Source: a phage
Strand: one strand, 5' to 3'
Sequence record: PZ496580.1
Length of the DNA stretch: 64,000 nt
Every line of letters begins with the position of its first letter. Position 1 is the stretch's first letter. The notes under the pieces are model-generated. The model was not told the DNA's origin, searched no databases, and saw nothing but the letters and a program-made list of their open reading frames with translations. The position numbers and the translations under genes are program-made. Of the stretch, positions 471 through 12,769 are shown one piece after another.

Positions 471-2522
471 TTACATTTTAAATTTATCTGGCATTGCGTC
501 TACAGATACCAGATCAGCGATAAGCTGACGTAGAGTTGCCTTATCTGCTTTCTTACGTTCGGTTTTAGCTTCGGTAATGAAGCTGGAGAAAGAAAGGTCA
601 GAAGCAGGTTTAACAACACCTTCACGGATGAATGCATCACCGTCCGCGATCATCTCGCCAGATTCTTGTAATGCTGCCAGTTCATTTTTGTTCATAATAT
701 GTGCCTCAATGTAATAAGTTTCTTGTGAATCCGTTGATGCCGTAGCACGAGTTACCGTATCAAAGGATAACACAACACCGCGAGGAAGTAAAATCTCGCA
801 TTCTTTGTAAGCAAATGCCTTGTTACCTACTGGCAATACAGGGATGTTTTCCGCGCCAGCGATAGAGAAAGCAACATTAGCGCCACCTTCACCGCGAGAT
901 CCCGCCATAGAATCAACACCAGCAACGGCACTAGCCACGTTTGCATTCCACCCACCAAAAATATTAGGTGCAAGGGAAGTGCTCACATAGTTTTTAAAGT
1001 AAAACGCTTTTTGCTTACGTGCAGTTTCCCACATTTGAGACCGGAAGTCCATACCACGATACAGAATAGTACCAGGATCAAGTTTAACGCCATAGTTAGA
1101 GAAGGCATTATCCAGTGCATCACACATCTTGACCAATTCTTCTGGGTCTGCGATGCCATCAAACTCTTCCAGCTTACGATCGGTTAGGAAGTTGTTCATA
1201 TTGATGTATGCTGCATCGGCATATTCGCTCAACACAAAACCTTCCGCGCCAGGCAGGTCAAGATCAATATCTGCCATCATTTCACCCATGTTGCTAGCAA
1301 TTGCTTCAAACATACCGGAAGCAACATTACGCAGGGCATCGGTTTTAATCTGCGTGATGTGACTACGAAGCATTTCAGCTTTTACATCTGCTGGCATAGA
1401 CTGGTCTACTCGATCCATTGCTAAGGCAGTGATCTTGTTTTCGAATACTTCCTCGTTCATGATTTCTTTTAAGCGTTTGATTGATGCTGCGATAACTTCC
1501 GCAGACAACGGATCATATTGATCCTGAACTTTTACCAGTTCGCTTACTGCGTATTTTGCATCGGCCTCGCTTTCAAAAATAGTACGCATGAAACCATAGC
1601 GAGTGATAATATCACTTGTCCAATCATTCAGAGAACGCGCGGTTGAACGTTCTAAGGCTTGACGGTCAATCAGAGTATTAAACTGTTTCTTAGGTTCGGC
1701 TTCGGTGATATCTTCTTCCGGTTTAAGATTAATTTTTTCTGGATGATTCACATAGTCGCTGTTATAGGTCGCTTGAGTTTTCAGCATTTCTTCTTTAGTC
1801 AAACGAGATTTAGCCGCTACGCGTTGTTCTGCTTCCGCGTTTCGTTCTTCTTCTGACACAAGACTAGCCGCATACGCTTCATCTTTAGTCAGAGATTCGC
1901 CAGTAGCCTTAGATACCCAGCGATCACCTAAATCACTTTCTACTTTAGTGAACAAGGATTCATCAAGTTTAATCCCTTTAATCTTATCAATCGCCATCCC
2001 GCGACGTTTGACAACAACTAAAGCGATCTTTTTGCTGGTCATTACTTCCTGCTGGAATACTTCAAACTTCGGTGTACGACGCACCAAACGCTCTATAACG
2101 CGCTTAACCAGTTCGGTCTTACCTTTCATGCGGGATACGTTAAAACGGAACATAACAGCGTCTAATTGCGCTTTACGGGCTGTTTCCATAACCACATCAA
2201 AAGCACTTGCCATAACTGCAATCGGGTTATCGCCTAGACCATTTTTAAGCTGTACAATACGACCGCTTTTGTTCATTTCGCACAGTACAACATGTGCGGT
2301 CTTGTCACCCATACGAATGATTTTAGGTGTTTTGTTGGTGAAGTTACAAAGACGGACAATCACATCTTTATCGCGTGTCTGTACTGCAAAAAGCTGTTTA
2401 GGATTCTGCTTAGGCTTTAAGCACTGTACCGGGGCAATACTGCCAAAGTTTTCTTCCTCTTCTGTCAACAGCCATTTCTCGAAAGATTCAATCATTAGAT
2501 CGTCGATTTCTAAGTTAAACAT
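471..2522 (-). CDS. alt: Alt-like ADP-ribosyltransferase (virion-packaged RNAP-modifying enzyme)
   Basis: 683 aa (T4 Alt ~682 aa); C-terminal region has R (LYRGM), STS (YVSTSL) and ExE (KECEI) ART signature; sits after gene 30 as in T4. Confidence 0.7.
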   Translation of the reverse strand: MFNLEIDDLMIESFEKWLLTEEEENFGSIAPVQCLKPKQNPKQLFAVQTRDKDVIVRLCNFTNKTPKIIRMGDKTAHVVLCEMNKSGRIVQLKNGLGDNPIAVMASAFDVVMETARKAQLDAVMFRFNVSRMKGKTELVKRVIERLVRRTPKFEVFQQEVMTSKKIALVVVKRRGMAIDKIKGIKLDESLFTKVESDLGDRWVSKATGESLTKDEAYAASLVSEEERNAEAEQRVAAKSRLTKEEMLKTQATYNSDYVNHPEKINLKPEEDITEAEPKKQFNTLIDRQALERSTARSLNDWTSDIITRYGFMRTIFESEADAKYAVSELVKVQDQYDPLSAEVIAASIKRLKEIMNEEVFENKITALAMDRVDQSMPADVKAEMLRSHITQIKTDALRNVASGMFEAIASNMGEMMADIDLDLPGAEGFVLSEYADAAYINMNNFLTDRKLEEFDGIADPEELVKMCDALDNAFSNYGVKLDPGTILYRGMDFRSQMWETARKQKAFYFKNYVSTSLAPNIFGGWNANVASAVAGVDSMAGSRGEGGANVAFSIAGAENIPVLPVGNKAFAYKECEILLPRGVVLSFDTVTRATASTDSQETYYIEAHIMNKNELAALQESGEMIADGDAFIREGVVKPASDLSFSSFITEAKTERKKADKATLRQLIADLVSVDAMPDKFKM

Positions 2523-2801: not shown

Positions 2802-2837
2802 TTGATACTCCTTAGTAGTTCGTTTCGGTATGTGTGC

Positions 2838-2866
2838 ATTATAGGGGATCACCGATCCCCTGTCAA
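2838..2866 (-). promoter_or_regulatory. sigma70-type early promoter cassette (PeSL-like)
   Basis: approx; TTGACA-17-TATAAT with palindromic spacer GGGGATCGGTGATCCCC, then conserved leader and SD. Confidence 0.6.
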
Positions 2867-2874
2867 CAACTTTT

Positions 2875-3393
2875 TTAGTTATTTTTTAATTGCTCATCTT
2901 GCAATAGGGCAATCACATGCTGGCGATGTTCTTCCGATTGAGGCACACCGAAAAAGTTTGTTTTGTAGAAATACTCTAATCGGTCTTCTCGTGTGCTCTC
3001 TTCCATCATGATCGCTGGTAGACCAAGATTGCGGAAACGTCGCTTTTCTGCTGGCGTAAAATCGCTGTAATACAGCATAGAATCATCATTACCAGCAATG
3101 CTAAACTCATCCTTCATGAAGGAGAATATTGCGTTTAAACGCTGTTTACCGTCCACGATTTCGATCTCATAGCGAGAGCCATCATCAATCTTAGCCATTG
3201 CGATAGCGCCTACCGGAAAATCATTAATCAGGTTTTCGATAAACATACGTTTGTTTTCTGTGTCCCATACCAAAGGACGCTGATAATCTGGGTTCATGTT
3301 GATATAGCCATCTTCTAACCATGCTTCGTAAACAGAGATGACAAAGTTTTTAGTATTGGTATAGTAACGGCGTTTAGGCGTTAAACGGTTCAT
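2875..3393 (-). CDS. DUF262 / ParB-Srx-like nuclease-NTPase domain protein
   Basis: 172 aa; DYQRPLVW ... DGKQRL motifs match the DUF262 N-terminal signature; ATGA overlap with upstream small ORF. Confidence 0.5.
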   Translation of the reverse strand: MNRLTPKRRYYTNTKNFVISVYEAWLEDGYINMNPDYQRPLVWDTENKRMFIENLINDFPVGAIAMAKIDDGSRYEIEIVDGKQRLNAIFSFMKDEFSIAGNDDSMLYYSDFTPAEKRRFRNLGLPAIMMEESTREDRLEYFYKTNFFGVPQSEEHRQHVIALLQDEQLKNN

Positions 3394-3569: not shown

Positions 3570-3901
3570 AATATAGTTCTCCTGAATGGATCATCACGTA
3601 AATCAATATCTTTTAAGAACTCATCCCATGAATGGCGGATATTGTTCTTAATTCTCCAGATAAGCGCAGGGATTGAACGCTCACCCATCTGGAAGTAAGG
3701 ATCATATGATCCGTATGCCCAATATGCTACTACAATTCCACAATCAGCGCAATAGTATTCTATCTCGCTTGCTGGCGACCAAAGTCCATCAATATGATCG
3801 GTGATCTTGCTTTCAATGTTATGACTATGGCAATTAGGGCAACGTATGCAATGACCTTGTTTATCGTAATTTGACGTTAGAGAATACTTAAACAATCTCA
3901 T
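3566..3901 (-). CDS. zinc-ribbon protein (CxxC..CxxC)
   Basis: 111 aa with CIRCPNCH and CADCG cysteine pairs; translationally coupled to the upstream methyltransferase-like gene. Confidence 0.45.
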   Translation of the reverse strand: MRLFKYSLTSNYDKQGHCIRCPNCHSHNIESKITDHIDGLWSPASEIEYYCADCGIVVAYWAYGSYDPYFQMGERSIPALIWRIKNNIRHSWDEFLKDIDLRDDPFRRTIL

Positions 3902-4617
3902 TATAGATCCTTATTGGCTTCAAATACTGCCTTTGCGAATCCTCGCGGGGTAAGTGACCTGATAGTCTTTGTTCTGGTTCCTTTCCCGCCTAGCTTAGAA
4001 TGCTGTTTGCTGTACCCTTTATTAATCGGCAACGGTTTCTTTTCTGGCATTATAAAGCCTTGTCCGGTCCACAAGCAAGTCTTTTTCGGGTACATATCAC
4101 GGGAGGCAATATACTCAGGAAACGTAGGATGTATATCATCTTCCGGCAAATAACCGCCATATTCCCACGGATGGAACATGTAATCAGGCTTACGCCACAT
4201 GCTAGAGATAACGCTTACAGGATTCTCTATCATGTAGGGAACTCCTAGCCATTCACCCAAATAAGCGGTTATTTTAGCTGCCCTTACATCATGAATTTGA
4301 ATTAATGGTCCTTGCTCTCGTTTCTTTCGTTCAAAGTGTGCAGCGCCACTAACAGCTAAATTGGTGCATGGTGGGAATGCAAATATAATATCCGGTTTCC
4401 CCCATTCAAGGTCCATTGCTCTTTCCAGCCAGTTCAAATCAATCCATGTGTTTACATAGGTAATGTTTGGATGTTCAAATCGGGTATTATATTTTTTGTA
4501 TGTACCGTGGTCGCCATCGTCAGCATTAAAGCAGATCACCTTATGACCTGCTTTAGCCCATTCTAGCCCCATTATCCCCGATCCGTCAAAGTTGCAGAAT
4601 ATTAATTTTTGTTTCAT
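3901..4617 (-). CDS. minimal C5-cytosine methyltransferase-like protein (no target-recognition domain)
   Basis: 238 aa; motif I-like FCNFDGSG, motif IV-like FPPCT (Pro-Cys nucleophile), motif VI-like ENP; much shorter than canonical DNA C5-MTases. Confidence 0.4.
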   Translation of the reverse strand: MKQKLIFCNFDGSGIMGLEWAKAGHKVICFNADDGDHGTYKKYNTRFEHPNITYVNTWIDLNWLERAMDLEWGKPDIIFAFPPCTNLAVSGAAHFERKKREQGPLIQIHDVRAAKITAYLGEWLGVPYMIENPVSVISSMWRKPDYMFHPWEYGGYLPEDDIHPTFPEYIASRDMYPKKTCLWTGQGFIMPEKKPLPINKGYSKQHSKLGGKGTRTKTIRSLTPRGFAKAVFEANKDL

Positions 4618-4859
4618 ATACGCCCCTTTAACCCAACACAGATTTTAGAAGGTTCTTTACCGTGCCACATTAAGTAAAGTCCGTTAGTGCGGCCTTGTTT
4701 TGTATATGATTCTTTTCTAATCTTCTTATAGTGTCGTGCTTCCTCAACCGATTGTTTAGAATACCAATCATAAAGGAAGATGAACAAAGGCCAACCATTA
4801 GCGGCCTTAATGCAGTTATTAAGAAATTCCTTATTGCGTTTAATTAATTTTCTTTTCAC
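4614..4859 (-). CDS. hypothetical protein (81 aa, basic)
   Basis: ORF track; overlaps neighbours by 4 nt at both ends (coupled). Confidence 0.4.
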   Translation of the reverse strand: MKRKLIKRNKEFLNNCIKAANGWPLFIFLYDWYSKQSVEEARHYKKIRKESYTKQGRTNGLYLMWHGKEPSKICVGLKGRI

Positions 4860-5107
4860 GCTGCCCCCGTTGGTTTGATAGTAACAGAATCTAAAAGACC
4901 TTTGTTAGCCAGTTCGCGGCAAGTTTTCAGATCCGCAACTTCCCAGCCAGCCGCAATCAGGTTATCAATCAGGCTGTTAGCAACTTCTTCGCTCATGAAA
5001 GAGCACTGTTTGCCGATGGTGTAGCGTACACGCTGTAATTTCAGTTTACGGAAGCCTTTAACGTTCAGGTCTTTAGCGATTTTCTTTGCGGTTTCGATGT
5101 TAGCCAT
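4856..5107 (-). CDS. hypothetical protein (83 aa)
   Basis: ORF track; ATG follows conserved leader and AGGAGAATC SD downstream of promoter cassette. Confidence 0.5.
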   Translation of the reverse strand: MANIETAKKIAKDLNVKGFRKLKLQRVRYTIGKQCSFMSEEVANSLIDNLIAAGWEVADLKTCRELANKGLLDSVTIKPTGAA

Positions 5108-5147
5108 TGTTTGATTCTCCTAAGTAGTATCTCGTCTTGATGTGTGT

Positions 5148-5176
5148 ATTATAGGGGATGGTGTCTCCCCTGTCAA
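5148..5176 (-). promoter_or_regulatory. sigma70-type early promoter cassette
   Basis: approx; TTGACA-17-TATAAT, GGGGA..TCCCC palindromic spacer. Confidence 0.55.
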
Positions 5177-5190
5177 CACTTTTTATAAAA

Positions 5191-5358
5191 TTATTTGTTA
5201 ATTTCCGGTGCGTTGCTCGGATAGTAACCTTCTTTAACTCCGAGGTATTTCGCAACCATCCCTACAATCTTCTGTGCTACTACAATGTCAAATTTCAGAT
5301 AATCTTCGCCGTGGGTTTCAATGATATATGCTTCACATGCTGCTTTAGTCTCGAACAT
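5191..5358 (-). CDS. hypothetical small protein (55 aa), copy 1 of duplicated gene
   Basis: MFETKAACEAYI...YYPSNAPEINK; about 90 percent nt identity to second copy at 8945..9112; follows conserved leader and SD. Confidence 0.45.
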   Translation of the reverse strand: MFETKAACEAYIIETHGEDYLKFDIVVAQKIVGMVAKYLGVKEGYYPSNAPEINK

Positions 5359-5391
5359 TTTGATTCTCCTATTTCGTTTCGGTATGTGTGT

Positions 5392-5420
5392 ATTATAGGG
5401 GATCTCCCGATCCCCGTCAA
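5392..5420 (-). promoter_or_regulatory. sigma70-type early promoter cassette
   Basis: approx; TTGACG-17-TATAAT. Confidence 0.5.
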
Positions 5421-5434
5421 CAACTTTTTTAAAA

Positions 5435-5716
5435 TTATTCGTGATTAGTTTCGATATTGTACATTTTGCACCAGTTCAGCCAATCGCCCAGATCTTGATA
5501 GTTGATGCTTTTATCTGCTGCCATAGTTTTTGTCTTGATACCCATATGTGCGTTATGAGTAAGCATTTTTACAGTGAACTCGATTTTATCGCCTTTAGCT
5601 TTAACATCAACCAGTTTGGTCCACTGGCTACCAGCGCCGCGAATGTTCATACCAACGATGTTTCCGATGTATGCTTCTTTGTTTTTCAGGATTTCGGTTG
5701 CTTTGATGAATTTCAT
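5435..5716 (-). CDS. hypothetical protein (93 aa)
   Basis: ORF track; conserved leader and SD upstream. Confidence 0.5.
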   Translation of the reverse strand: MKFIKATEILKNKEAYIGNIVGMNIRGAGSQWTKLVDVKAKGDKIEFTVKMLTHNAHMGIKTKTMAADKSINYQDLGDWLNWCKMYNIETNHE

Positions 5717-5749
5717 TTTTGATTCTCCAGTTCGTTTCGGTATGTGTGT

Positions 5750-5778
5750 ATTATGCTATGTTCTTACTTTGGTGTCAA
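5750..5778 (-). promoter_or_regulatory. sigma70-type early promoter cassette
   Basis: approx; TTGACA-17-CATAAT. Confidence 0.5.
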
Positions 5779-5786
5779 CAACTTTT

Positions 5787-6056
5787 TTAGATATTTTCAG
5801 AAATAAATTTTAAAACTTGACGTAAATGTTTCTCATCTTTGATAGTCGCCGGAAGTTCTTCTTTTACTTCCTGTGCAAGATAGATATTTCCGTTCCAAGT
5901 GAAAGATCCGTCTTCGTTTACGCGATAGCTGAACATCCACTCGCAATCATTTTCGATTTCATATACACACAGAAGGGTGTAATCATTAAAGCTGTTGATT
6001 TCAAGGTCGAGGCCGTGACGTTTTGCAAAGTTGGTAGTGGTTTTAGTCAATGCCAT
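5787..6056 (-). CDS. hypothetical protein (89 aa)
   Basis: ORF track; conserved leader and SD. Confidence 0.5.
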   Translation of the reverse strand: MALTKTTTNFAKRHGLDLEINSFNDYTLLCVYEIENDCEWMFSYRVNEDGSFTWNGNIYLAQEVKEELPATIKDEKHLRQVLKFISENI

Positions 6057-6096
6057 TGTTTGATTCTCCTAAGTGGTATCTCGTTTCGATAGGTGT

Positions 6097-6125
6097 ATTA
6101 TGATATAGGCGTGATCTGGTGTCAA
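6097..6125 (-). promoter_or_regulatory. sigma70-type early promoter cassette
   Basis: approx; TTGACA-17-CATAAT. Confidence 0.5.
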
Positions 6126-6146
6126 CAACTTTTTTAAAATTTAGGC

Positions 6147-6172
6147 AATAAAAAGCCGACACTAAGGTCGGC
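6147..6172 (-). terminator. intrinsic terminator (copy 1 of duplicated module)
   Basis: approx; GCCGAC-loop-GTCGGC followed on minus strand by TTTTTATTGCC; near-identical copy at ~6655..6680. Confidence 0.5.
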
Positions 6173-6177
6173 ACATT

Positions 6178-6495
6178 TTAAAAATTCTTGCTATATATGC
6201 AAGCCTCATAATCTAGAGGATGACCGCCAATCCTACCAGGCTTAATATTCCAACCGCATCGATATTTGCTGACCATGCTAACCGTTTCGGTTCTTAGAGC
6301 ATTTCTTTGCAAATCATACCCCCTAAATTCTTGTCTATAAGGACAGTCCGCTTTGCAAGTTGGCGGTTCTACGTCATTTAGCGGGTCAGAAGCAGTTGGC
6401 TTTATTATCAATTCTTTGTTTGCAATAATCATAAGCACATCCCATTGAAGGCAATTTAACATCTTCGCAATAAGTGTTGAATCCGTCAAATACAA
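6178..6495 (-). CDS. hypothetical Cys-containing protein (start uncertain)
   Basis: ORF track 105 aa; overlaps 6386..6565 in another frame; likely internal start (MIIANKEL...). Confidence 0.3.
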   Translation of the reverse strand: MYLTDSTLIAKMLNCLQWDVLMIIANKELIIKPTASDPLNDVEPPTCKADCPYRQEFRGYDLQRNALRTETVSMVSKYRCGWNIKPGRIGGHPLDYEACIYSKNF

Positions 6496-6565
6496 TCACT
6501 TCGTATTTGACTCCATCGGCGATAGCTTTTACTTTATACCATCCATGCTTGTATAAAATCTTCAT
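6386..6565 (-). CDS. hypothetical small protein (~59 aa)
   Basis: track ORF trimmed to ATG after GAGGGA SD in conserved leader. Confidence 0.35.
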   Translation of the reverse strand: MKILYKHGWYKVKAIADGVKYEVIVFDGFNTYCEDVKLPSMGCAYDYCKQRIDNKANCF

Positions 6566-6599
6566 CTTTATTTCCCTCAATCTCGTTTCGATGGGTGTA

Positions 6600-6628
6600 T
6601 TATGCTATAGGCGTGATCTGGTGTCAAT
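6600..6628 (-). promoter_or_regulatory. sigma70-type early promoter cassette
   Basis: approx; TTGACA-17-CATAAT. Confidence 0.5.
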
Positions 6629-6654
6629 GCCTTTTTTTTTAAAAATTTTATGCA

Positions 6655-6680
6655 ATAAAAAGCCGACACTAAGGTCGGCT
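6655..6680 (-). terminator. intrinsic terminator (copy 2 of duplicated module)
   Basis: approx; same GCCGACACTAAGGTCGGC hairpin plus T-tract as at ~6147..6172. Confidence 0.5.
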
Positions 6681-6687
6681 AATAAAA

Positions 6688-6996
6688 TCATTTAGACAAA
6701 TAATCATTCTGTGCAATCCGGTCGGCGTATGCTGGTGTTATGTCAATCGCCAGCACTTTAACGCGTGCTTTCTTGCGACCTGAGTTTTCTCGTAACCAGT
6801 GCTCATGACCGTGAACATTTTTATACTTTGATGCTGTTTCGAAAGTACGGATCGGACCTGGGTAATCAGCGTAAAGGATCTCTAGGTCTTCGGTGATGTA
6901 AAAATATACATCATAATTACTGTTCTCTAGTTTAAGCAGAGAGTTGCGTAATTGTGGTAAATTCTCGCGGGTAAATTCAACTACAAGATTTTTCAT
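6688..6996 (-). CDS. paralog family member A (HxHW / VLAxDV motif family)
   Basis: track ORF trimmed to ATG with GAGGAT SD; shares YFYI..D, H.HW and VLAIDI motifs with five neighbouring ORFs. Confidence 0.5.
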   Translation of the reverse strand: MKNLVVEFTRENLPQLRNSLLKLENSNYDVYFYITEDLEILYADYPGPIRTFETASKYKNVHGHEHWLRENSGRKKARVKVLAIDITPAYADRIAQNDYLSK

Positions 6997-7021
6997 AGTG
7001 ATATCCTCATTCAGATAGATT

Positions 7022-7040
7022 AAAAGGGGCTTAACGCCCC
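7022..7040 (-). terminator. hairpin terminator
   Basis: approx; GGGGC-TTAA-GCCCC with flanking A/T runs. Confidence 0.4.
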
Positions 7041-7045
7041 ATATA

Positions 7046-7333
7046 TTAAAACAGTCCTTCCTGTACACCGTAGTAGAGTTCATCGCTGATAATTTCATTA
7101 ATGCGACGGTGTGCATATTCCTGATTTGCGAAGTTGTCAGCAAGTTCTACTTTAGTTTCGCCGTCATGAGTCCATTTAGTGATAACTTTACCATCTGCAA
7201 ATTTGAAGTTGAACTCTTTAGCTACTGCATCGCGTACCAGACGTGCAAACTTGTTGTTACGGATTGCATTATCGGTCTCGTGTGCAGCGTGAGCAAATTT
7301 GTTAACTTTCAGCGTGATAGTGATGTATGCCAT
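7046..7333 (-). CDS. hypothetical protein (95 aa)
   Basis: ORF track; conserved leader and SD. Confidence 0.5.
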   Translation of the reverse strand: MAYITITLKVNKFAHAAHETDNAIRNNKFARLVRDAVAKEFNFKFADGKVITKWTHDGETKVELADNFANQEYAHRRINEIISDELYYGVQEGLF

Positions 7334-7373
7334 TGTTTGATTCTCCTAAGTGGTATCTCGTTTCGATGGGTGT

Positions 7374-7402
7374 ATTATGCTATACACCCGATCTTATGTC
7401 AA
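7374..7402 (-). promoter_or_regulatory. sigma70-type early promoter cassette
   Basis: approx; TTGACA-17-CATAAT. Confidence 0.5.
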
Positions 7403-7407
7403 CACTT

Positions 7408-7686
7408 TTATAAAATAATTTTTTGATATTTTTCTATGATGTTTGAGTAGGTCACATCAACCGCTAGCACCGTTGCTTCGAATCCACCGTCTAGCCAATG
7501 GCTATGGTCATGATCGTGAAAGAAACCAAGACCAGTACGAAGACCTTCTTTATATTCGGCGCGTACATTCAGTTTGTCGTCGATAAACAGATAAAACCAT
7601 GAATTTTTACTAGGATTGATGATACAACCTTTCAGATTAGGGAGAATATCACGACTAAGAATAAACTTATCACCTACTTTGAACAT
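7408..7686 (-). CDS. paralog family member B
   Basis: trimmed to MFKVGD start with GTGAGGA SD; motifs WFYLFIDD, HDHSHWL, VLAVDV. Confidence 0.5.
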   Translation of the reverse strand: MFKVGDKFILSRDILPNLKGCIINPSKNSWFYLFIDDKLNVRAEYKEGLRTGLGFFHDHDHSHWLDGGFEATVLAVDVTYSNIIEKYQKIIL

Positions 7687-7709
7687 AATATTGTCCTCAC
7701 TTATAAAGT

Positions 7710-8009
7710 TTAACTGTTGTTTTTCTCGTAATGCTGCATACGTGCTTGATCTGCTTCCGCTGGTGATAGATTCCATGCGATCACTACAACTTCTGACGCA
7801 TCATGATCATTATCACTTACCCAATGATTATGATTCATACAATTGTTTGCTATCGCGTGAGCAAATGATCTCATTACAGGAGACGTATAATCATAGTAAC
7901 GGATTTTCAGATTTTCATCAACGTACAAATAGATCGTATAAGGTTTATATTCAGTAACCAGTAACAGACAGTTACGCAATTCTGGGAAAATCTTTTTAGT
8001 TAATTTCAT
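7710..8009 (-). CDS. paralog family member C
   Basis: ORF track; motifs IYLYVDE, NHNHW, VVVIAWN. Confidence 0.45.
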   Translation of the reverse strand: MKLTKKIFPELRNCLLLVTEYKPYTIYLYVDENLKIRYYDYTSPVMRSFAHAIANNCMNHNHWVSDNDHDASEVVVIAWNLSPAEADQARMQHYEKNNS

Positions 8010-8211
8010 ATTCTAGTTCTCCGTAATACACGGTAATCCATTTTTCTTCATACTTTGTATCTTTCCAGCACACAATCCCGTTTACTGCGCAATCTTTGGA
8101 ATTGACGAATGATTCATATTGTTCTGCATCTTCCATCATTGCATGAGCGGTCTTTTCATCGAATATATCGCAGATCGCTTTATATGCTCGATAATCTTTA
8201 AATTTGCTCAT
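7996..8211 (-). CDS. hypothetical protein, MSKFKDY tandem duplicate 1
   Basis: trimmed to MSKFKDYRAY; paralogous to adjacent 8214..8423 (shared MSKFKDY..AY...MMEDA..W(K)(D/E)T.Y). Confidence 0.4.
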   Translation of the reverse strand: MSKFKDYRAYKAICDIFDEKTAHAMMEDAEQYESFVNSKDCAVNGIVCWKDTKYEEKWITVYYGELEYEIN

Positions 8212-8213
8212 AA

Positions 8214-8423
8214 TTAACACCATTCAAGAGTTTTTGAAAACACGTCTATCCATTGTTGAGTGTAGCATGTTTCTTTCCATGATACAATACGAGTAGAATA
8301 ATGGTTTTTGTTTCCAGAAAAGGACGGGCATTTTGATGCATCTTCCATCATCTTTTCGGCGAACTCTGGTTCGTATACCCGCAGGATCTGTTGATATGCT
8401 TTATAATCTTTAAATTTGCTCAT
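8214..8423 (-). CDS. hypothetical protein, MSKFKDY tandem duplicate 2
   Basis: ORF track; same N-terminal nucleotide motif as neighbour. Confidence 0.45.
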   Translation of the reverse strand: MSKFKDYKAYQQILRVYEPEFAEKMMEDASKCPSFSGNKNHYSTRIVSWKETCYTQQWIDVFSKTLEWC

Positions 8424-8688
8424 AATTGTTAACTACCTTATCAGCTTCTTTTATTGTTTTTACATCAACTGCGATAATCCGTAAAGGTTCGTCGAAGGTC
8501 CACCAATGATCGTGAATATCAGCTTGTGATTTATCACCAAAGGAATCACGAATATCATTTTTACATTTATAGCTAATATGGCCTTCATAGTCAACATAAA
8601 GGTAATTATCGAAAATCGGCGTTTTTAAGATCATACCGAAAAATCTTTCTTTGTGTGTCTTATCCAGCGTTGCAGTAATTCGCATCAT
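8410..8688 (-). CDS. paralog family member D
   Basis: ORF track; motifs NYLYVDYEG, HDHWW, IIAVDV; GAGGAA SD. Confidence 0.5.
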   Translation of the reverse strand: MMRITATLDKTHKERFFGMILKTPIFDNYLYVDYEGHISYKCKNDIRDSFGDKSQADIHDHWWTFDEPLRIIAVDVKTIKEADKVVNNYEQI

Positions 8689-8700
8689 AATATATTCCTC

Positions 8701-8880
8701 TTAGAAAGGGATGGTCATTTCTTGAGCTTGTACATTCTCATTAGGATTAAACTTCATCCAGCCGATATTGTCTACCAGCATATGCACATTTTTATCATAT
8801 CCTACGTGGGTAGTCAATACTGTATGTGCTTTACCTTCAATTATGAGTTCCATGTACTTCTGAACTTCGATAGCTTTCAT
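8701..8880 (-). CDS. hypothetical small protein (59 aa, below ORF-track cutoff)
   Basis: ATG directly after conserved leader and SD (cat tttgattctcc on plus strand); MKAIEVQKYMELIIEGKAH... Confidence 0.4.
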   Translation of the reverse strand: MKAIEVQKYMELIIEGKAHTVLTTHVGYDKNVHMLVDNIGWMKFNPNENVQAQEMTIPF

Positions 8881-8912
8881 TTTGATTCTCCGTTTGTTGT
8901 CTTGATGGGAGT

Positions 8913-8941
8913 ATCTTACTACTCCCTTTAATCATTGTCAA
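8913..8941 (-). promoter_or_regulatory. sigma70-type early promoter cassette
   Basis: approx; TTGACA-17-TAAGAT; -10 embedded in GGGAGTAGTAAGATACTCCC palindrome. Confidence 0.45.
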
Positions 8942-8944
8942 CTA

Positions 8945-9112
8945 TTATTTGTTAATTTCTGGTGCGTTGCTCGGATAGTAACCTTCTTTAACACCCAGAT
9001 ATTTTGCAACCATTCCGGTGATCTTCTGTGCTACTACGATATCGAATTTCAGGTAGTCTTCACCGTGGTTTGCTACAATGTATGCTTCGCATTCTGCTTT
9101 AGTCTGGAACAT
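8945..9112 (-). CDS. hypothetical small protein (55 aa), copy 2 of duplicated gene
   Basis: MFQTKAECEAYIVANHGEDYLKFDIVVAQK...; near-identical to 5191..5358. Confidence 0.45.
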   Translation of the reverse strand: MFQTKAECEAYIVANHGEDYLKFDIVVAQKITGMVAKYLGVKEGYYPSNAPEINK

Positions 9113-9147
9113 TTTTTGATTCTCCTATATCTCGTTGGTATGTGTGC

Positions 9148-9176
9148 ATTATAGGGGATCACCGATCCCCTGTCAA
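9148..9176 (-). promoter_or_regulatory. sigma70-type early promoter cassette
   Basis: approx; TTGACA-17-TATAAT, spacer GGGGATCGGTGATCCCC identical to cassette at 2838..2866. Confidence 0.6.
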
Positions 9177-9181
9177 CAACT

Positions 9182-9475
9182 TTATAATGCTTTATATGCG
9201 TATTTCATAAATTTGTCTGCCACTTCATTGGCATGTTCAGCTTCTACGCCTGATTCGAGAACAATAGCTAGGTCGGTTTCGTCATTCCCGCCGTACCAAT
9301 GATTTGATGTTCGATTTTTTTCAATTGGAAATTGGTCACTTTTATCTGTGCGACAAAATACATCTAAATGCTCGTCGATGTAAAAGATCCAATCTTCATA
9401 AAGAATAACGGTATTAGCCAGATTTTTATTGCCTTCAACGAAAGGTTCGGCTACAAACAAATTAGTATGTTCCAT
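9182..9475 (-). CDS. paralog family member E (divergent)
   Basis: trimmed to MEHTNLF start with GAGGAA SD; motifs IFYIDEHLDV, SNHW, AIVLESG. Confidence 0.4.
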   Translation of the reverse strand: MEHTNLFVAEPFVEGNKNLANTVILYEDWIFYIDEHLDVFCRTDKSDQFPIEKNRTSNHWYGGNDETDLAIVLESGVEAEHANEVADKFMKYAYKAL

Positions 9476-9732: not shown

Positions 9733-9761
9733 ATATTACATTACACAAAATGGCGTGTCAA
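9733..9761 (-). promoter_or_regulatory. sigma70-type early promoter
   Basis: approx; TTGACA-17-TAATAT, -35 lies inside 3' end of upstream ORF. Confidence 0.4.
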
Positions 9762-10061
9762 TGCTTCTTTTGCTGTTCCGCTAAGACTTTCGATCTCGCC
9801 TGGCATAACATCAACTGCCAGAACTTCTACAACATCCTCGGACCCTAACCAGTGAGTATGACCTTTGTAGAACTTGATGACCAGACTACCTTCCTCGTCC
9901 CATTTAACGCTATCGCTAGCCCACCACACATCACCGTCGATAAAGTTGATGTAAAGCACACTACGCCACATTGAATTAATTACTTTCAATACTGCGCCTT
10001 TCATCTCTTCCACGGTATGGTCTTCCATTTTGAAGACCTCACCTACCTGAACTTTTGCCAT
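9741..10061 (-). CDS. paralog family member F
   Basis: ORF track; motifs LYINFIDGD, GHTHWL, VLAVDVM; GAGAGG SD. Confidence 0.5.
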   Translation of the reverse strand: MAKVQVGEVFKMEDHTVEEMKGAVLKVINSMWRSVLYINFIDGDVWWASDSVKWDEEGSLVIKFYKGHTHWLGSEDVVEVLAVDVMPGEIESLSGTAKEALTRHFV

Positions 10062-10261: not shown

Positions 10262-10295
10262 AATTGATTCTCCTAGTTCGTTTCGGTATGTGTGT

Positions 10296-10324
10296 AGTAT
10301 AGGGGATCGGTGATCCCCTGTCAA
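10296..10324 (-). promoter_or_regulatory. sigma70-type early promoter cassette
   Basis: approx; TTGACA-17-TATACT; GGGGATCACCGATCCCC spacer. Confidence 0.5.
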
Positions 10325-10337
10325 CAACTTTTTTGAA

Positions 10338-10814
10338 TTATTTTTCTTGATGCTCGCGCTCGTACTTTTCGAAATAAAATTCTACTGGCTGGTCGTGGAT
10401 TGAAAGCAAGCCAAAGCGTTTAGCCGCTCGTAATCCCATATTGCGCTGAATGTACTTCTGGAAGTTCTCGCGTATACACTTACGCCAGTATTCTAAGCCC
10501 ATACAGCTTTTATAAAGATTGCATTGCACACATGCCGGATTCATGTTATCAAGTATATCATGCTCCGGTTTATGCATTCCTACAACCTTATACTTCCACG
10601 ATCCATCATCGTTACGGGAAATGCGCCCATTTTCATCATAGACTACTTTTGAGCGTCGTAATACTGGTTTGATATGATCCGCGTGCCAGCGTTCTCCTAG
10701 TACCTCTCCGCAATAGGCACAACGTCCACCGTATTTCATTTTCAGGATCTGGCGTTGCTCTTTCTTTGACAATTTTTTAGGTTTAGGGGCTTTCGCCCCT
10801 TCATTATCACACAT
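10338..10814 (-). CDS. HNH endonuclease (free-standing, candidate homing endonuclease)
   Basis: 158 aa; CAYCGEV...HADHIKP...C..CN motif typical of HNH; start overlaps 3' end of ligase gene by 8 nt. Confidence 0.6.
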   Translation of the reverse strand: MCDNEGAKAPKPKKLSKKEQRQILKMKYGGRCAYCGEVLGERWHADHIKPVLRRSKVVYDENGRISRNDDGSWKYKVVGMHKPEHDILDNMNPACVQCNLYKSCMGLEYWRKCIRENFQKYIQRNMGLRAAKRFGLLSIHDQPVEFYFEKYEREHQEK

Positions 10815-12303
10815 CGAATACCTCTTTTACTGTATTTGCAGTGGTCTTGTCGTAGCGAATACGTTTGATGATCGGGAGAAATAAAGAGAACTCCGGTTCA
10901 TCTTCTTTACGTGATTTGCTGCGGATATACCCGTTGCATGTCATCTCAATGACTTTTCCGATCAGGTTATGACGGTCAGCCCATAACATTTCTCGGTCAA
11001 GTTCATTTCGACGATCGAACGGAATTACACGTTCAATACCATCATCACCTTTTTCGGTTGTGGTGTCGGTCAATCCCGATCCGGTGTTAGTCATCATTCG
11101 TCCGCACGCACTACGGACAGTAAAACCGCCTACCTTATTAGGATCTTTACTATGCGGATATACATCAACAATTTCCGCGTCGAAGTCAATCACTTCTTTA
11201 AATTTAACCTGATCTTTACTGCGACGATCTTCAAATACACCATGTAAATTTTTAAGGATAATACCTTCTAAGCCCATGTTTACATAGCGATGATATACTT
11301 CGCGAGCTTCATCTATATTGTTAACTACAGTGTTTTCGATTATCTGAACACGAGGATCGTTAAGTTCTTCAACAATCTGTTTTAGTTCTTCGAATCGATC
11401 TTTATATTGCTTCGTTGCTTTCTCGTTTCCGTAATACACATCACGGTCGATAACATCCCAGACAGTGTAAACAATACATTGGGCTTCTTCTTTTGGAATA
11501 GTTCCTTTCAGTGATTTGTTGAGGATGCCATTTCCGGTCTGACGATCTGCAACAACGGATTCTTTCACTGCTTCCGCTACTGGCGTTAATGGCATTTCCT
11601 CTTCTTCAAATATCCATGACAGAGTACCGTCATAAACGCTCTCAACGAAGTTCTGCGCTGGTGTTTGCGAAAGGGTAGGCATATATACCAATTCGCCATC
11701 TAGAACAATTCCACGTCCTCGTAGACGCTCTAAAACCGCAAACAAATCATCAAGCCCCTGATAGGTATTACCTGAACGGGTATAGATTGCTAATGTTTCC
11801 CCGTCAATATCAGCCATACCACGAGCGCCATCGCTTTTAAGTTGTGCATATGCAGGATATTTGATATTAGCAATGGCCTTATCAGAATATGACGATGCAA
11901 GGTGGCACGGTTGCTGGGGGATCAGTTTCTTCCATACCTTGTTTGCAGTGGTAGCGGAACAACCGCATTCCAGGTCACGATTCAGGACCATCATTGCAAC
12001 TTTAGCATCATCTTCTGACAAGCAAGTCAGAGTATCGGTAACTAGCTGTAATGCTGCATTGCCAGTTACTTGACGTGTGGCAAGTTTATTTTTAAAGACT
12101 TGTAATGCACCGGATAAAGACAATACAGACGAATATCGCGATGGTTTATCGTATTTCTTTACGCCAAACGTAACCTGTTTGCAATATGCCAGATAAAAGC
12201 ATTCTTTCAGAGTGTCATTGCTTGCTGATTCTTTCAGGATCTTTTCTTTCAGCGATGTTTTGTCTGTTGCTGCAAGCTGATTAATGATATTAAGAATTGA
12301 CAT
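10807..12303 (-). CDS. 30: ATP-dependent DNA ligase
   Basis: ~498 aa; collinear with T4 gp30 from memory (KADGARC-type adenylation Lys region LKSDGARG, GLEGIILKN, C-terminal IKRIRYDKT); track start is GTG, likely true ATG 6 nt downstream. Confidence 0.85.
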   Translation of the reverse strand: MSILNIINQLAATDKTSLKEKILKESASNDTLKECFYLAYCKQVTFGVKKYDKPSRYSSVLSLSGALQVFKNKLATRQVTGNAALQLVTDTLTCLSEDDAKVAMMVLNRDLECGCSATTANKVWKKLIPQQPCHLASSYSDKAIANIKYPAYAQLKSDGARGMADIDGETLAIYTRSGNTYQGLDDLFAVLERLRGRGIVLDGELVYMPTLSQTPAQNFVESVYDGTLSWIFEEEEMPLTPVAEAVKESVVADRQTGNGILNKSLKGTIPKEEAQCIVYTVWDVIDRDVYYGNEKATKQYKDRFEELKQIVEELNDPRVQIIENTVVNNIDEAREVYHRYVNMGLEGIILKNLHGVFEDRRSKDQVKFKEVIDFDAEIVDVYPHSKDPNKVGGFTVRSACGRMMTNTGSGLTDTTTEKGDDGIERVIPFDRRNELDREMLWADRHNLIGKVIEMTCNGYIRSKSRKEDEPEFSLFLPIIKRIRYDKTTANTVKEVFDV

Positions 12304-12769
12304 TTTCACCTCGTTTTGTTAAACGTTCACGAATATCATTGAGGATACTACAAAATTCTGATTCGGTCAATATGGTCTTTAACGGATCAGTTCCACCTAT
12401 GCTATGACGTAATTTCTTATTTCCGGTAGCGAGTAACGCTTTACAAAATTCCGGGTTATTCCTTGCCATCGTAACAAATGCCAGATGTACCAGTCTGTAA
12501 TAATGCTCACTCATTCGATGAATCGGGCGACCCTGAAAATATAACATGTGATTCTCTATCTTTTCAGTCCTTCCGGTTCTTTTTGCTTTGCCACCGTACA
12601 TCAAAAAGATTTCTCTTTGTCTCTGAGGGTTCTTAAATCTTAGCCCCTGTAAAAATCCTTCTGTGCTGTTAATATCGCAACCAAATAGACGGAATGGTCT
12701 TTTATTGAAATTACTCAATTCACCAGATGGATAAGGTCCACCCGCATAGATATCAATTTCAGAAGTCAT
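12290..12769 (-). CDS. NADAR (YbiA/DUF1768)-like protein, candidate ADP-ribose-processing glycohydrolase
   Basis: 159 aa; GELSNF, STEGFLQGLRF and KALLATGNKKL motifs resemble NADAR family signatures. Confidence 0.5.
   Translation of the reverse strand: MTSEIDIYAGGPYPSGELSNFNKRPFRLFGCDINSTEGFLQGLRFKNPQRQREIFLMYGGKAKRTGRTEKIENHMLYFQGRPIHRMSEHYYRLVHLAFVTMARNNPEFCKALLATGNKKLRHSIGGTDPLKTILTESEFCSILNDIRERLTKRGENVNS

Follow-up and report, generated by a model that had tools for sequence, protein, structure and literature searches.

How did two similar genes of only 55 codons, lying in direct orientation with their starts 3754 nt apart, come to occupy the same part of one phage genome, and do they still exchange sequence? 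These genes (copies A and B) reside in a window of 64,000 nt, i.e. the whole stretch of record PZ496580.1 analysed here, whose sequence assigns its source to Krischvirus, among the RB49/phi1/JSE-like T4-type coliphages. A megablast search matched the window to 59 Krischvirus records, with identity of up to 95%. As the preliminary description had stated, a small coding gene has undergone dispersed duplication in the hyperplastic region, which extends here between alt and the DNA ligase gene gp30 and contains about 10 PeSLs within 8 kb. PeSL cassettes were defined in the hyperplastic region that contains RB49p191/RB49p205 (Arbiol 2010, PMC2839356), and the annotated RB49 genes p191 and p205, likewise phi1 ORF191 and ORF205, correspond to copies A and B. 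In our opinion these copies are probably old paralogues, generated by the copying of a PeSL-to-PeSL cassette and still recombining with each other. No tRNA genes were found within the 64-kb window. A supposed enrichment in GATC was dropped (364 observed vs 349 expected).

The proteins encoded by A and B share 49 of 55 residues (89%), differing at six positions (3, 7, 13-15 and 32), and both ORFs begin with ATG. The earlier reading of two near-identical ORFs at these coordinates is therefore correct at the protein level, while the identity of their coding sequences had been overestimated: it amounts to 85.1% (143/168 nt) and not to about 90%. Reciprocal tblastn comparison gave an E value of ~1e-30, far above chance, and revealed no third copy of the gene in the window, whose repeat-family listing contains the pair as a 172-nt direct repeat of 85% identity. 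Nearly all mismatches (24 of the 25) fall within the first 120 nt of the CDS (hypergeometric P = 0.0013). These 25 differences between the copies also speak against a mis-joined or collapsed repeat, and the same arrangement recurs in dozens of independently sequenced genomes; since 52 of the 59 independently deposited records contain two copies, an assembly artefact is ruled out for practical purposes.

The similarity between A and B begins within the PeSL and stops 1 nt past the stop codon (TAA), and the genes flanking copy A are unrelated to those flanking copy B. Judged from these boundaries, the duplicated unit would be exactly one PeSL-to-PeSL cassette, and the term "segmental", applied to it previously, is not appropriate for a single ORF set among unrelated neighbours. 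Other old paralogue sets are present in the interval (the 6688/7408/7710/9741 family and the tandem pair 7996/8214), which points to repeated local duplication. They would suit unequal crossing-over that duplicated a larger block in tandem, followed by PeSL-mediated changes that left the 55-aa gene alone recognisable. However, A and B are not flanked by a second, collinear paralogue pair, and many additional events would be required, which makes this scenario highly improbable.

Table 1. Positions of copies A and B, their PeSL cassettes and neighbouring features in the window
Feature	Position	Strand	Remarks
alt	471..2522		limit of the hyperplastic region
PeSL of an unrelated gene	2802..2879		87% to PeSL(A)
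ORF190 homologue	4856..5107		promoter in PeSL191/190
PeSL191/190, downstream of copy A	5108..5190	-	-35 5176-5171; -10 5153-5148; stem GGGGAG..ATCCCC; 3' limit of the duplicated unit
Copy A, 55-aa early ORFan	5191..5358	-	orthologue of RB49p191 / phi1 ORF191; phrog_8009
PeSL193/191 (PeSL(A)), upstream of copy A	5359..5434	-	AT-rich tract, promoter, stem-loop, GGAG Shine-Dalgarno; -35 TTGACG 5420-5415; -10 TATAAT 5397-5392; stem-loop GGGGATCGGGAGATCCCC 5415-5398
12 small ORFs (ORF193..ORF204 homologues) between the copy A and B cassettes	5435..8880	-	
PeSL205/204, downstream of copy B	8881..8944	-	-35 TTGACA 8941-8936, beginning 3 nt past the copy B stop codon; stem GGGAGTA..TACTCCC overlapping -10-like TAAGAT 8918-8913
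Copy B, 55-aa early ORFan	8945..9112	-	orthologue of RB49p205 / phi1 ORF205; phrog_8009
PeSL206/205 (PeSL(B)), upstream of copy B	9113..9181	-	promoter, stem-loop, GGAG Shine-Dalgarno; -35 TTGACA 9176-9171; -10 TATAAT 9153-9148; stem-loop GGGGATCGGTGATCCCC 9170-9154
PeSL of an unrelated gene	10262..10339		87% to PeSL(A)
DNA ligase gene gp30	10807..12309		limit of the hyperplastic region

Each copy is indeed preceded by its own cassette (Table 1), composed of a near-consensus sigma-70 promoter, a stem-loop and GGAG. The hexamers are arranged as TTGACG-17-TATAAT in PeSL(A) (11/12 matches) and TTGACA-17-TATAAT in PeSL(B) (12/12), with GGGGATC..GATCCCC stems placed between -35 and -10; those of the downstream cassettes score 12/12 and 10/12. 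The MFE of the stem-loops is -15 to -16 kcal/mol, with fold z values of -1.8 for the two upstream cassettes and of -2.6 and -4.5 (the latter for PeSL205/204) for those downstream. The cassettes are intergenic, front ORFans within the hyperplastic region, and have an AT-rich tract ahead of -35 that includes the preceding gene's stop codon, and a Shine-Dalgarno sequence and start codon at the 3' end; the exception is PeSL205/204, where the place of the tract is taken by copy B's own AT-rich 3' end. With a PeSL in front and the next one directly after the stop codon, each copy would constitute a monocistronic early unit. For PeSL206/205, promoter activity of about 13,000 Miller units was reported (relative to the RB49 cassette, that of the window has an additional A in front of the ATG), and the stem-loop of PeSL211/210 terminated transcription like rrnB T1 (Arbiol 2010, PMC2839356).

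It had been proposed that the gene was duplicated together with its promoter cassette. A PeSL does front each copy, and PeSL(A) and PeSL(B) are 87% identical; however, PeSL(A) shows the same identity to two PeSLs preceding unrelated genes. The promoter likeness is thus generic to this PeSL subclass, the shared upstream cassette was rejected as proof of co-duplication, and it is possible that the promoter did not move with the gene.

Comparison of the copies across the genus allowed us to estimate the age of the pair. Within the window, A and B differ with dS of 0.94 (1.78 over codons 1-40) and dN/dS of 0.06, and the differing codons comprise 16 with synonymous changes only and 6 with replacements. 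In contrast, dS between orthologues from different Krischvirus genomes is about 0.0-0.3, mostly 0.1 or less. Two allele classes, A and B, can be distinguished across 12 phages, and both copies occupy the same positions in 52/59 Krischvirus records, including RB49, phi1, JSE, E26 and PTE-Eco09. On these distances, the divergence of A and B long predates the split of the sequenced members of the genus. The preliminary description had considered the event recent, and a recent segmental duplication in this one genome might be suggested by the 172-nt direct repeat and by the similar cassette before each copy. This is refuted by the excess of dS over orthologue values and by the 52 two-copy records, which extend far beyond a single tip, and the sharing of just one ORF between unrelated surroundings also argues against it; we regard it as extremely improbable. 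The strong purifying selection acting on both copies, which also have homologues outside the genus, indicates that both encode a functional protein.

Both proteins are full-length members of phrog_8009 (residues 1-55 of 55; E values 6.8e-38 and 1.2e-38), a PHROGs family without annotated function, and neither Pfam nor a PDB sequence profile search produced a match for the 55-aa protein at E up to 10. The family is small. A word-indexed search of 5.8 billion proteins yielded 4 clusters, and an exhaustive HMMER search of 1.84 billion representatives approximately 4 true family clusters, the other matches being short stretches of long repetitive proteins. A scan of IMG/VR identified 2 related loci only, and relatives were therefore taken from GenBank phage records.

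Homologues are present in unrelated siphoviruses (Swiduovirus swi2, 72% aa identity; SeSz-2; D10; Sashavirus, 40%) and in an E. coli-associated contig. Such a distribution, together with the repeated uptake of foreign ORFs at PeSL sites (RB49 ORF192 and a 312-nt ORF of JSE are both inserted at the site upstream of copy A) and the high dS, would suit independent acquisitions, in which a diverged allele received from another phage at a PeSL became the second copy and the two genes are xenologues. However, neither A nor B has a closer known relative than the other copy (89% aa identity vs no more than 83% to other known homologues), the outgroup states kept by each differ, with E3/E14/T15 in A and E7 in B, in line with a duplication, and no donor lineage was found among the 1.84 billion representative proteins. 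Import therefore seems unlikely, although the shortness of the gene (55 codons) and the scarcity of outgroups make a duplication in situ and the import of a diverged allele inseparable. In the distant relative L013, an ORF194-like gene directly precedes a single 54-aa homologue, which suggests that copy A probably occupies the parental site.

For paralogues of this kind, the origin could be explained by the copying of a single-gene cassette to a second PeSL site via homologous recombination between PeSLs: an excised PeSL mini-circle may have re-integrated at a different PeSL, or genomes replicating together may have undergone unequal exchange. A PeSL mini-circle containing ORFs 191-194 has been detected and sequenced (Arbiol et al. 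2010, PMC2839356). Copy A is ORFan191, contained in that mini-circle, and copy B lies behind the assayed PeSL206/205. The original duplication can be judged by its boundaries alone; these agree with PeSL-mediated movement but, since PeSL similarity is generic, are not decisive. The claim that the pair is direct evidence of cassette-mediated shuffling consequently goes too far for the window itself, whereas direct evidence is provided by related phages, through deletions, a cassette-free site with a chimeric PeSL, and conversion tracts ending within PeSLs.

The direct repeat of approximately 245 nt (PeSL plus gene, 85% identical) is still a substrate for phage homologous recombination, which yields three kinds of product: a 3.75-kb deletion, precise loss of the copy A cassette leaving a chimeric PeSL, and non-allelic conversion tracts. 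In Cognac and FL04, the 3.75-kb block between the copies is missing and a single hybrid cassette remains; this layout (ORF206 - hybrid cassette - ORF190) was found in only 2 of the 59 records. Cognac has its crossover after the B-type leader and before codon 3, whereas that of FL04 falls within the PeSL, in the interval from -35 to the leader. Three other phages (Brandy, JK32 and UPWr_E1) lack copy A and have ORF193 and ORF190 separated by one chimeric PeSL, its 5' half derived from PeSL193/191 and its 3' half from PeSL191/190. MIZ5 has lost ORF191..186, and its crossover is situated at the AT-rich/-35 part. In all six phages the end-points are located in PeSLs and a single chimeric PeSL is left.

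Exchange between the copies has also left mosaic alleles. The A locus of PTE-Eco09 carries B-type sequence between the -10 box and nt 24, the B copies of Brandy and PTE-Eco09 are of A type at nt 51-75, and the B-locus PeSL of E26 carries an A-type loop. Polymorphisms at nt 141 and 153 are shared between the copies, yet nt 33-45 and 87-108 continue to distinguish A from B. Conversion tracts cross the boundary between promoter and CDS. The near-identity of the 3' end (48 nt) is weaker evidence of conversion, because slow evolution of this segment may be partly responsible: the L013 homologue matches A at 36/42 positions there and at 87/120 upstream, and we have softened our reading of the 3' identity as pure gene conversion. 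A B-type patch at nt 114-120 of Cognac was also downgraded, as these sites are polymorphic among A alleles.

The duplication fits the published mechanism of cassette shuffling and is a new instance of a mechanism already known. Genus, region and cassettes are the same as those in the PeSL shuffling described for RB49 and phi1 (PMC2839356; PMC4122927), and the crossovers observed here (AT-rich/-35 part, stem, -10 to ATG) fall within the zones reported for their PeSLs. Word searches of these two papers found no mention of ORF191 and ORF205 as paralogues, nor of duplication or gene conversion as outcomes of PeSL recombination. Beyond them, genomes sequenced later provide the B-to-A deletion, the chimeric PeSL free of cassette A and the conversion tracts. 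The mosaic tracts, shared polymorphisms and near-identical 3' end resemble concerted evolution between dispersed paralogues; unlike in the general case, the phage is lytic and recombines very actively, and the tracts extend from a promoter cassette into coding sequence.

AlphaFold2, run with a 5-sequence alignment, gave a model of low confidence (pLDDT 67) with predicted helices at residues 5-16 and 18-39 and a disordered tail, for which a Foldseek search against BFVD found nothing at E below 1. We would tentatively guess that it is a small early protein of two helices, which may act on a host or defence target.

The A/B cassette pair alters no concept and does not illuminate the function of the protein. 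It does supply the PeSL shuffling model with a clean example from natural isolates, in which a single cassette pair followed through 59 genomes displays all the expected outcomes: duplication, precise cassette loss, block deletion and conversion. It also indicates that small dispersed repeats of T4-type phages can last long under selection despite very active recombination. It is conceivable, though very doubtful, that the copies are kept as direct-repeat "handles", by which the 12-gene block of 3.75 kb might regularly be excised as a PeSL mini-circle with one hybrid cassette, which could be packaged and move between co-infecting phages. If so, the pair would be maintained partly for this shuttle role, besides encoding two functionally diverged early proteins; selection for such a role is pure conjecture. 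Touching on this subject, the deletion product has arisen twice in nature (Cognac, FL04), with different crossovers, and a smaller circle carrying ORF191 was found experimentally by Arbiol et al. (PMC2839356).

Both 55-codon genes of the preliminary description, here copies A and B, are present, and the observation is real once one value is corrected: nucleotide identity, put there at about 90%, is 143/168 (85.1%) on alignment. The encoded proteins share 49/55 residues, the changes from A to B being E3Q, A7E, I13V, E14A, T15N and V32T. A repeat finder reported a single 172-nt direct repeat (5190-5361 and 8944-9115, 85%) with a spacing of 3754 nt, in agreement with the original figure of about 3.7 kb, and tblastn revealed no third copy in the window. 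A 4.8-kb stretch surrounding the copies matches 59 Krischvirus records, among them RB49, phi1, JSE and vB_Eco_SAP, with values reaching 95%; A and B are annotated as RB49p191 and RB49p205 in RB49, and their phi1 counterparts are ORF191 and ORF205.

Features of the region carrying copies A and B (PeSL, promoter-early stem-loop cassette)
Feature	Coordinates	Strand	Details
Copy A	5191..5358	minus	ORF, 55 residues, MFETKAACEAYIIETHGEDYLKFDIVVAQKIVGMVAKYLGVKEGYYPSNAPEINK
Copy B	8945..9112	minus	ORF, 55 residues
PeSL upstream of A		minus	AT-rich tract; TTGACG 5420-5415; stem-loop GGGGATCGGGAGATCCCC 5415-5398; TATAAT 5397-5392; leader; GGAG; ATG
PeSL upstream of B		minus	TTGACA 9176-9171; GGGGATCGGTGATCCCC 9170-9154; TATAAT 9153-9148; leader; GGAG; ATG
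alt	471..2522		one border of the region with both copies
DNA ligase gp30	10807..12309		other border
DNA methyltransferase gene	3901..4617		near GATC-bearing spacers
Diverged paralogous ORFan family, ~90-105 aa	6688-6996, 7408-7686, 7710-8009, 9741-10061		pairwise blastp, 26-35% identity
Further members of this family	8410-8688, 9182-9475		by eye
Tandem paralogous small genes	7996-8211, 8214-8423		both start MSKFKDY...; 44% aa identical
Repeated intrinsic-terminator hairpins	6130-6172 / 6637-6679	minus	GCCGACCTTAGTGTCGGC + T-run
Repeated intrinsic-terminator hairpins	2565-2594 / 7022-7051		GGGGC-TTAA-GCCCC type

Each copy is monocistronic with a PeSL on both sides, so the statement that each has its own cassette in front holds, and folding predicted the expected hairpins in all four flanking cassettes. 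The A/B similarity runs from within the PeSL to one base past the TAA stop codon, where the next PeSL, different at the two loci, begins; the neighbouring genes (ORF193 and ORF190 for A, ORF206 and ORF204 for B, in RB49 numbering) are unrelated. What was duplicated is therefore a single PeSL-to-PeSL cassette, and the term "segmental" has to be abandoned. In the 78 nt that precede the ATG, the two upstream PeSLs are 87% identical, but PeSL(A) is equally similar (87%) to PeSLs driving unrelated genes (2802-2879 and 10262-10339), so the promoter may not have moved along with the gene. PeSL(B) has a 40-nt identical core in common with the PeSL at 2808-2866. Upstream similarity is thus a trait of a PeSL subclass.

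The duplication is also not "recent". By the Nei-Gojobori method, A and B differ by a dS of 0.94 (codons 1-40, 1.78; codons 41-55, 0.125), against ~0.0-0.3, mostly <=0.1, for orthologues (A, B and neighbours in the window, RB49, phi1 and Brandy), the high end of this range being due to the converted Brandy B allele. Alleles from 12 phages form two classes, A and B, and a tblastn census of the 59 Krischvirus records, in which 71 records with 123 places were reconciled, found both copies in 52, B only in 5 and A only in 2. The duplication is therefore older than the divergence of the sequenced genus. An assembly artefact is ruled out for practical purposes, and the dN/dS of 0.06 between A and B indicates that purifying selection maintains both. 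The main rival reading, that the second copy is a diverged allele imported from another phage, is improbable: the nearest known relatives of A and B are each other (89% aa versus <=83%), and each has retained a different subset of outgroup residues.

Homologous recombination is very active in T4-type phages. We infer that a one-gene cassette may have been excised by recombination between two PeSLs and re-integrated at another PeSL; unequal exchange between co-replicating genomes would be an alternative route. The locus boundaries and behaviour agree with the published PeSL model. PeSLs were defined, and PeSL mini-circles detected, in this same hyperplastic region (HPR) between alt and gp30 (Arbiol et al. 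2010, PMC2839356); one sequenced mini-circle carried ORFs 191-194, and hence copy A, and PeSL206/205, in front of copy B, had a promoter activity of ~13,000 Miller units. Text searches found no mention of duplication or paralogy in that paper, nor of duplication, paralogy or gene conversion in its 2014 follow-up (PMC4122927). Mechanistically, the pair is a new instance of known PeSL shuffling, in the region of its original description.

In a distant relative on a Logan contig (SRR5584643; 5484-5926 and 5919-7394), the gene for a 54-aa homologue (83% aa to copy A) overlaps the preceding ORF194-like gene (41% aa) at TGATG, and no PeSL separates the two. This gene order is a mild hint that the neighbourhood of A is older than that of B. 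Immediately adjoining are a truncated E. coli-type PHP-family gene, which we take to be ycdX, and a 2-hydroxyacid dehydrogenase gene, presumably ghrA; the contig is either an integrated element or chimeric.

The preliminary description regarded the pair as direct evidence of cassette-mediated shuffling. The unit is indeed cassette-bounded and recombination cassette-mediated, with the real evidence provided by comparisons with relatives. Only Cognac and FL04 (2/59 records) have the order ORF206 - one 55-aa gene - ORF190, lacking the 12-gene block at 5435-8880; their crossovers differ, the Cognac locus keeping B-type sequence through its leader and turning A-type at codon 3, and the FL04 crossover lying inside the PeSL, between -35 and leader. 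In Brandy, JK32 and UPWr_E1 (ORF193 - one PeSL - ORF190) cassette A is precisely absent and the single PeSL is chimeric, its PeSL193/191 5' half and PeSL191/190 3' half joined within CCCCTATAaTACACACAT. Since the Brandy B allele contains an A-type tract and the flanking genes are no more diverged than those of other phages, loss of A is favoured over primitive absence. MIZ5 (and MIZ4) have lost ORF191 to ORF186, with the junction at the AT-rich/-35 portion of a PeSL. In PTE-Eco09 (1834-2384) copy B directly follows an ORF210 homologue and ORFs 206-209 are absent, a further PeSL-bounded deletion adjoining the duplicated cassette.

Gene conversion is visible at the PTE-Eco09 A locus, B-type between the -10 box and CDS nt 24, and in the Brandy and PTE-Eco09 B alleles, where six diagnostic sites in a row (nt 51-75) are A-type. 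E26 has an A-type loop in its B-locus PeSL, and nt 141 and 153 show the same-base polymorphism in both paralogues. The last 48 nt of A and B differ by one mismatch (non-uniform mismatch distribution, P = 0.0013), and an outgroup is also slow in this segment (36/42 identical versus 87/120 upstream); 3' homogenisation is likely, although not proven.

Insertions recur at the PeSL directly upstream of copy A (5359-5434). The window and phi1 have none there; RB49, MIZ2/3/6, G2494 and FL38 carry ORF192 (477 nt), JSE has an unrelated 312-nt ORF (hydrophobic N-terminus, Lys/Arg-rich), and SSG23 and SFHK24 have ~380 nt extra. The PeSL hairpin occurs in two exactly reverse-complementary forms, GGGGATC-GGT-GATCCCC (9170-9154, 2860-2844) and GGGGATC-ACC-GATCCCC (10318-10302). 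In the PeSL in front of copy B, the window, RB49, JSE and Brandy have a GGT loop, and phi1, MIZ5, PTE-Eco09 and JK32 an ACC loop, which points to hairpin-loop inversion or between-site swapping of whole PeSLs. GATC lies, often twice within the stem, inside 10/38 promoter-like -35/-10 spacers on the minus strand of the window (e.g. 9176-9148, 5420-5392, 2866-2838, 10324-10296 and 44211-44183), a count drawn from related copies and so not independent evidence; across the window GATC is not enriched (364 observed, 349 expected).

Both proteins match phrog_8009 (E ~1e-38), a family of unknown function, and neither has a Pfam or PDB match. It is a tiny family (4 clusters from a 5.8-billion protein set; ~4 true representatives among 1.84 billion), with members in Krischvirus, Swiduovirus, and SeSz-2/D10-type and Sashavirus siphoviruses, usually close to terminase genes. 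AlphaFold2 predicted, with low confidence, a two-helix hairpin with a disordered tail, for which Foldseek found nothing. From the early sigma-70 promoter and the location, one might guess at a small early protein aimed at the host or at defence.

The ~90-105-aa ORFan family, which has a common C-terminal motif, H-x-HW...(V/I)LA(V/I)D(V/I), takes up much of the interval from A to B. A 43-nt repeat (8173-8215 / 8385-8427) lies at the 5' ends of the tandem small genes, and both repeated terminator hairpin pairs lie between HPR genes and are distinct from PeSL stems.
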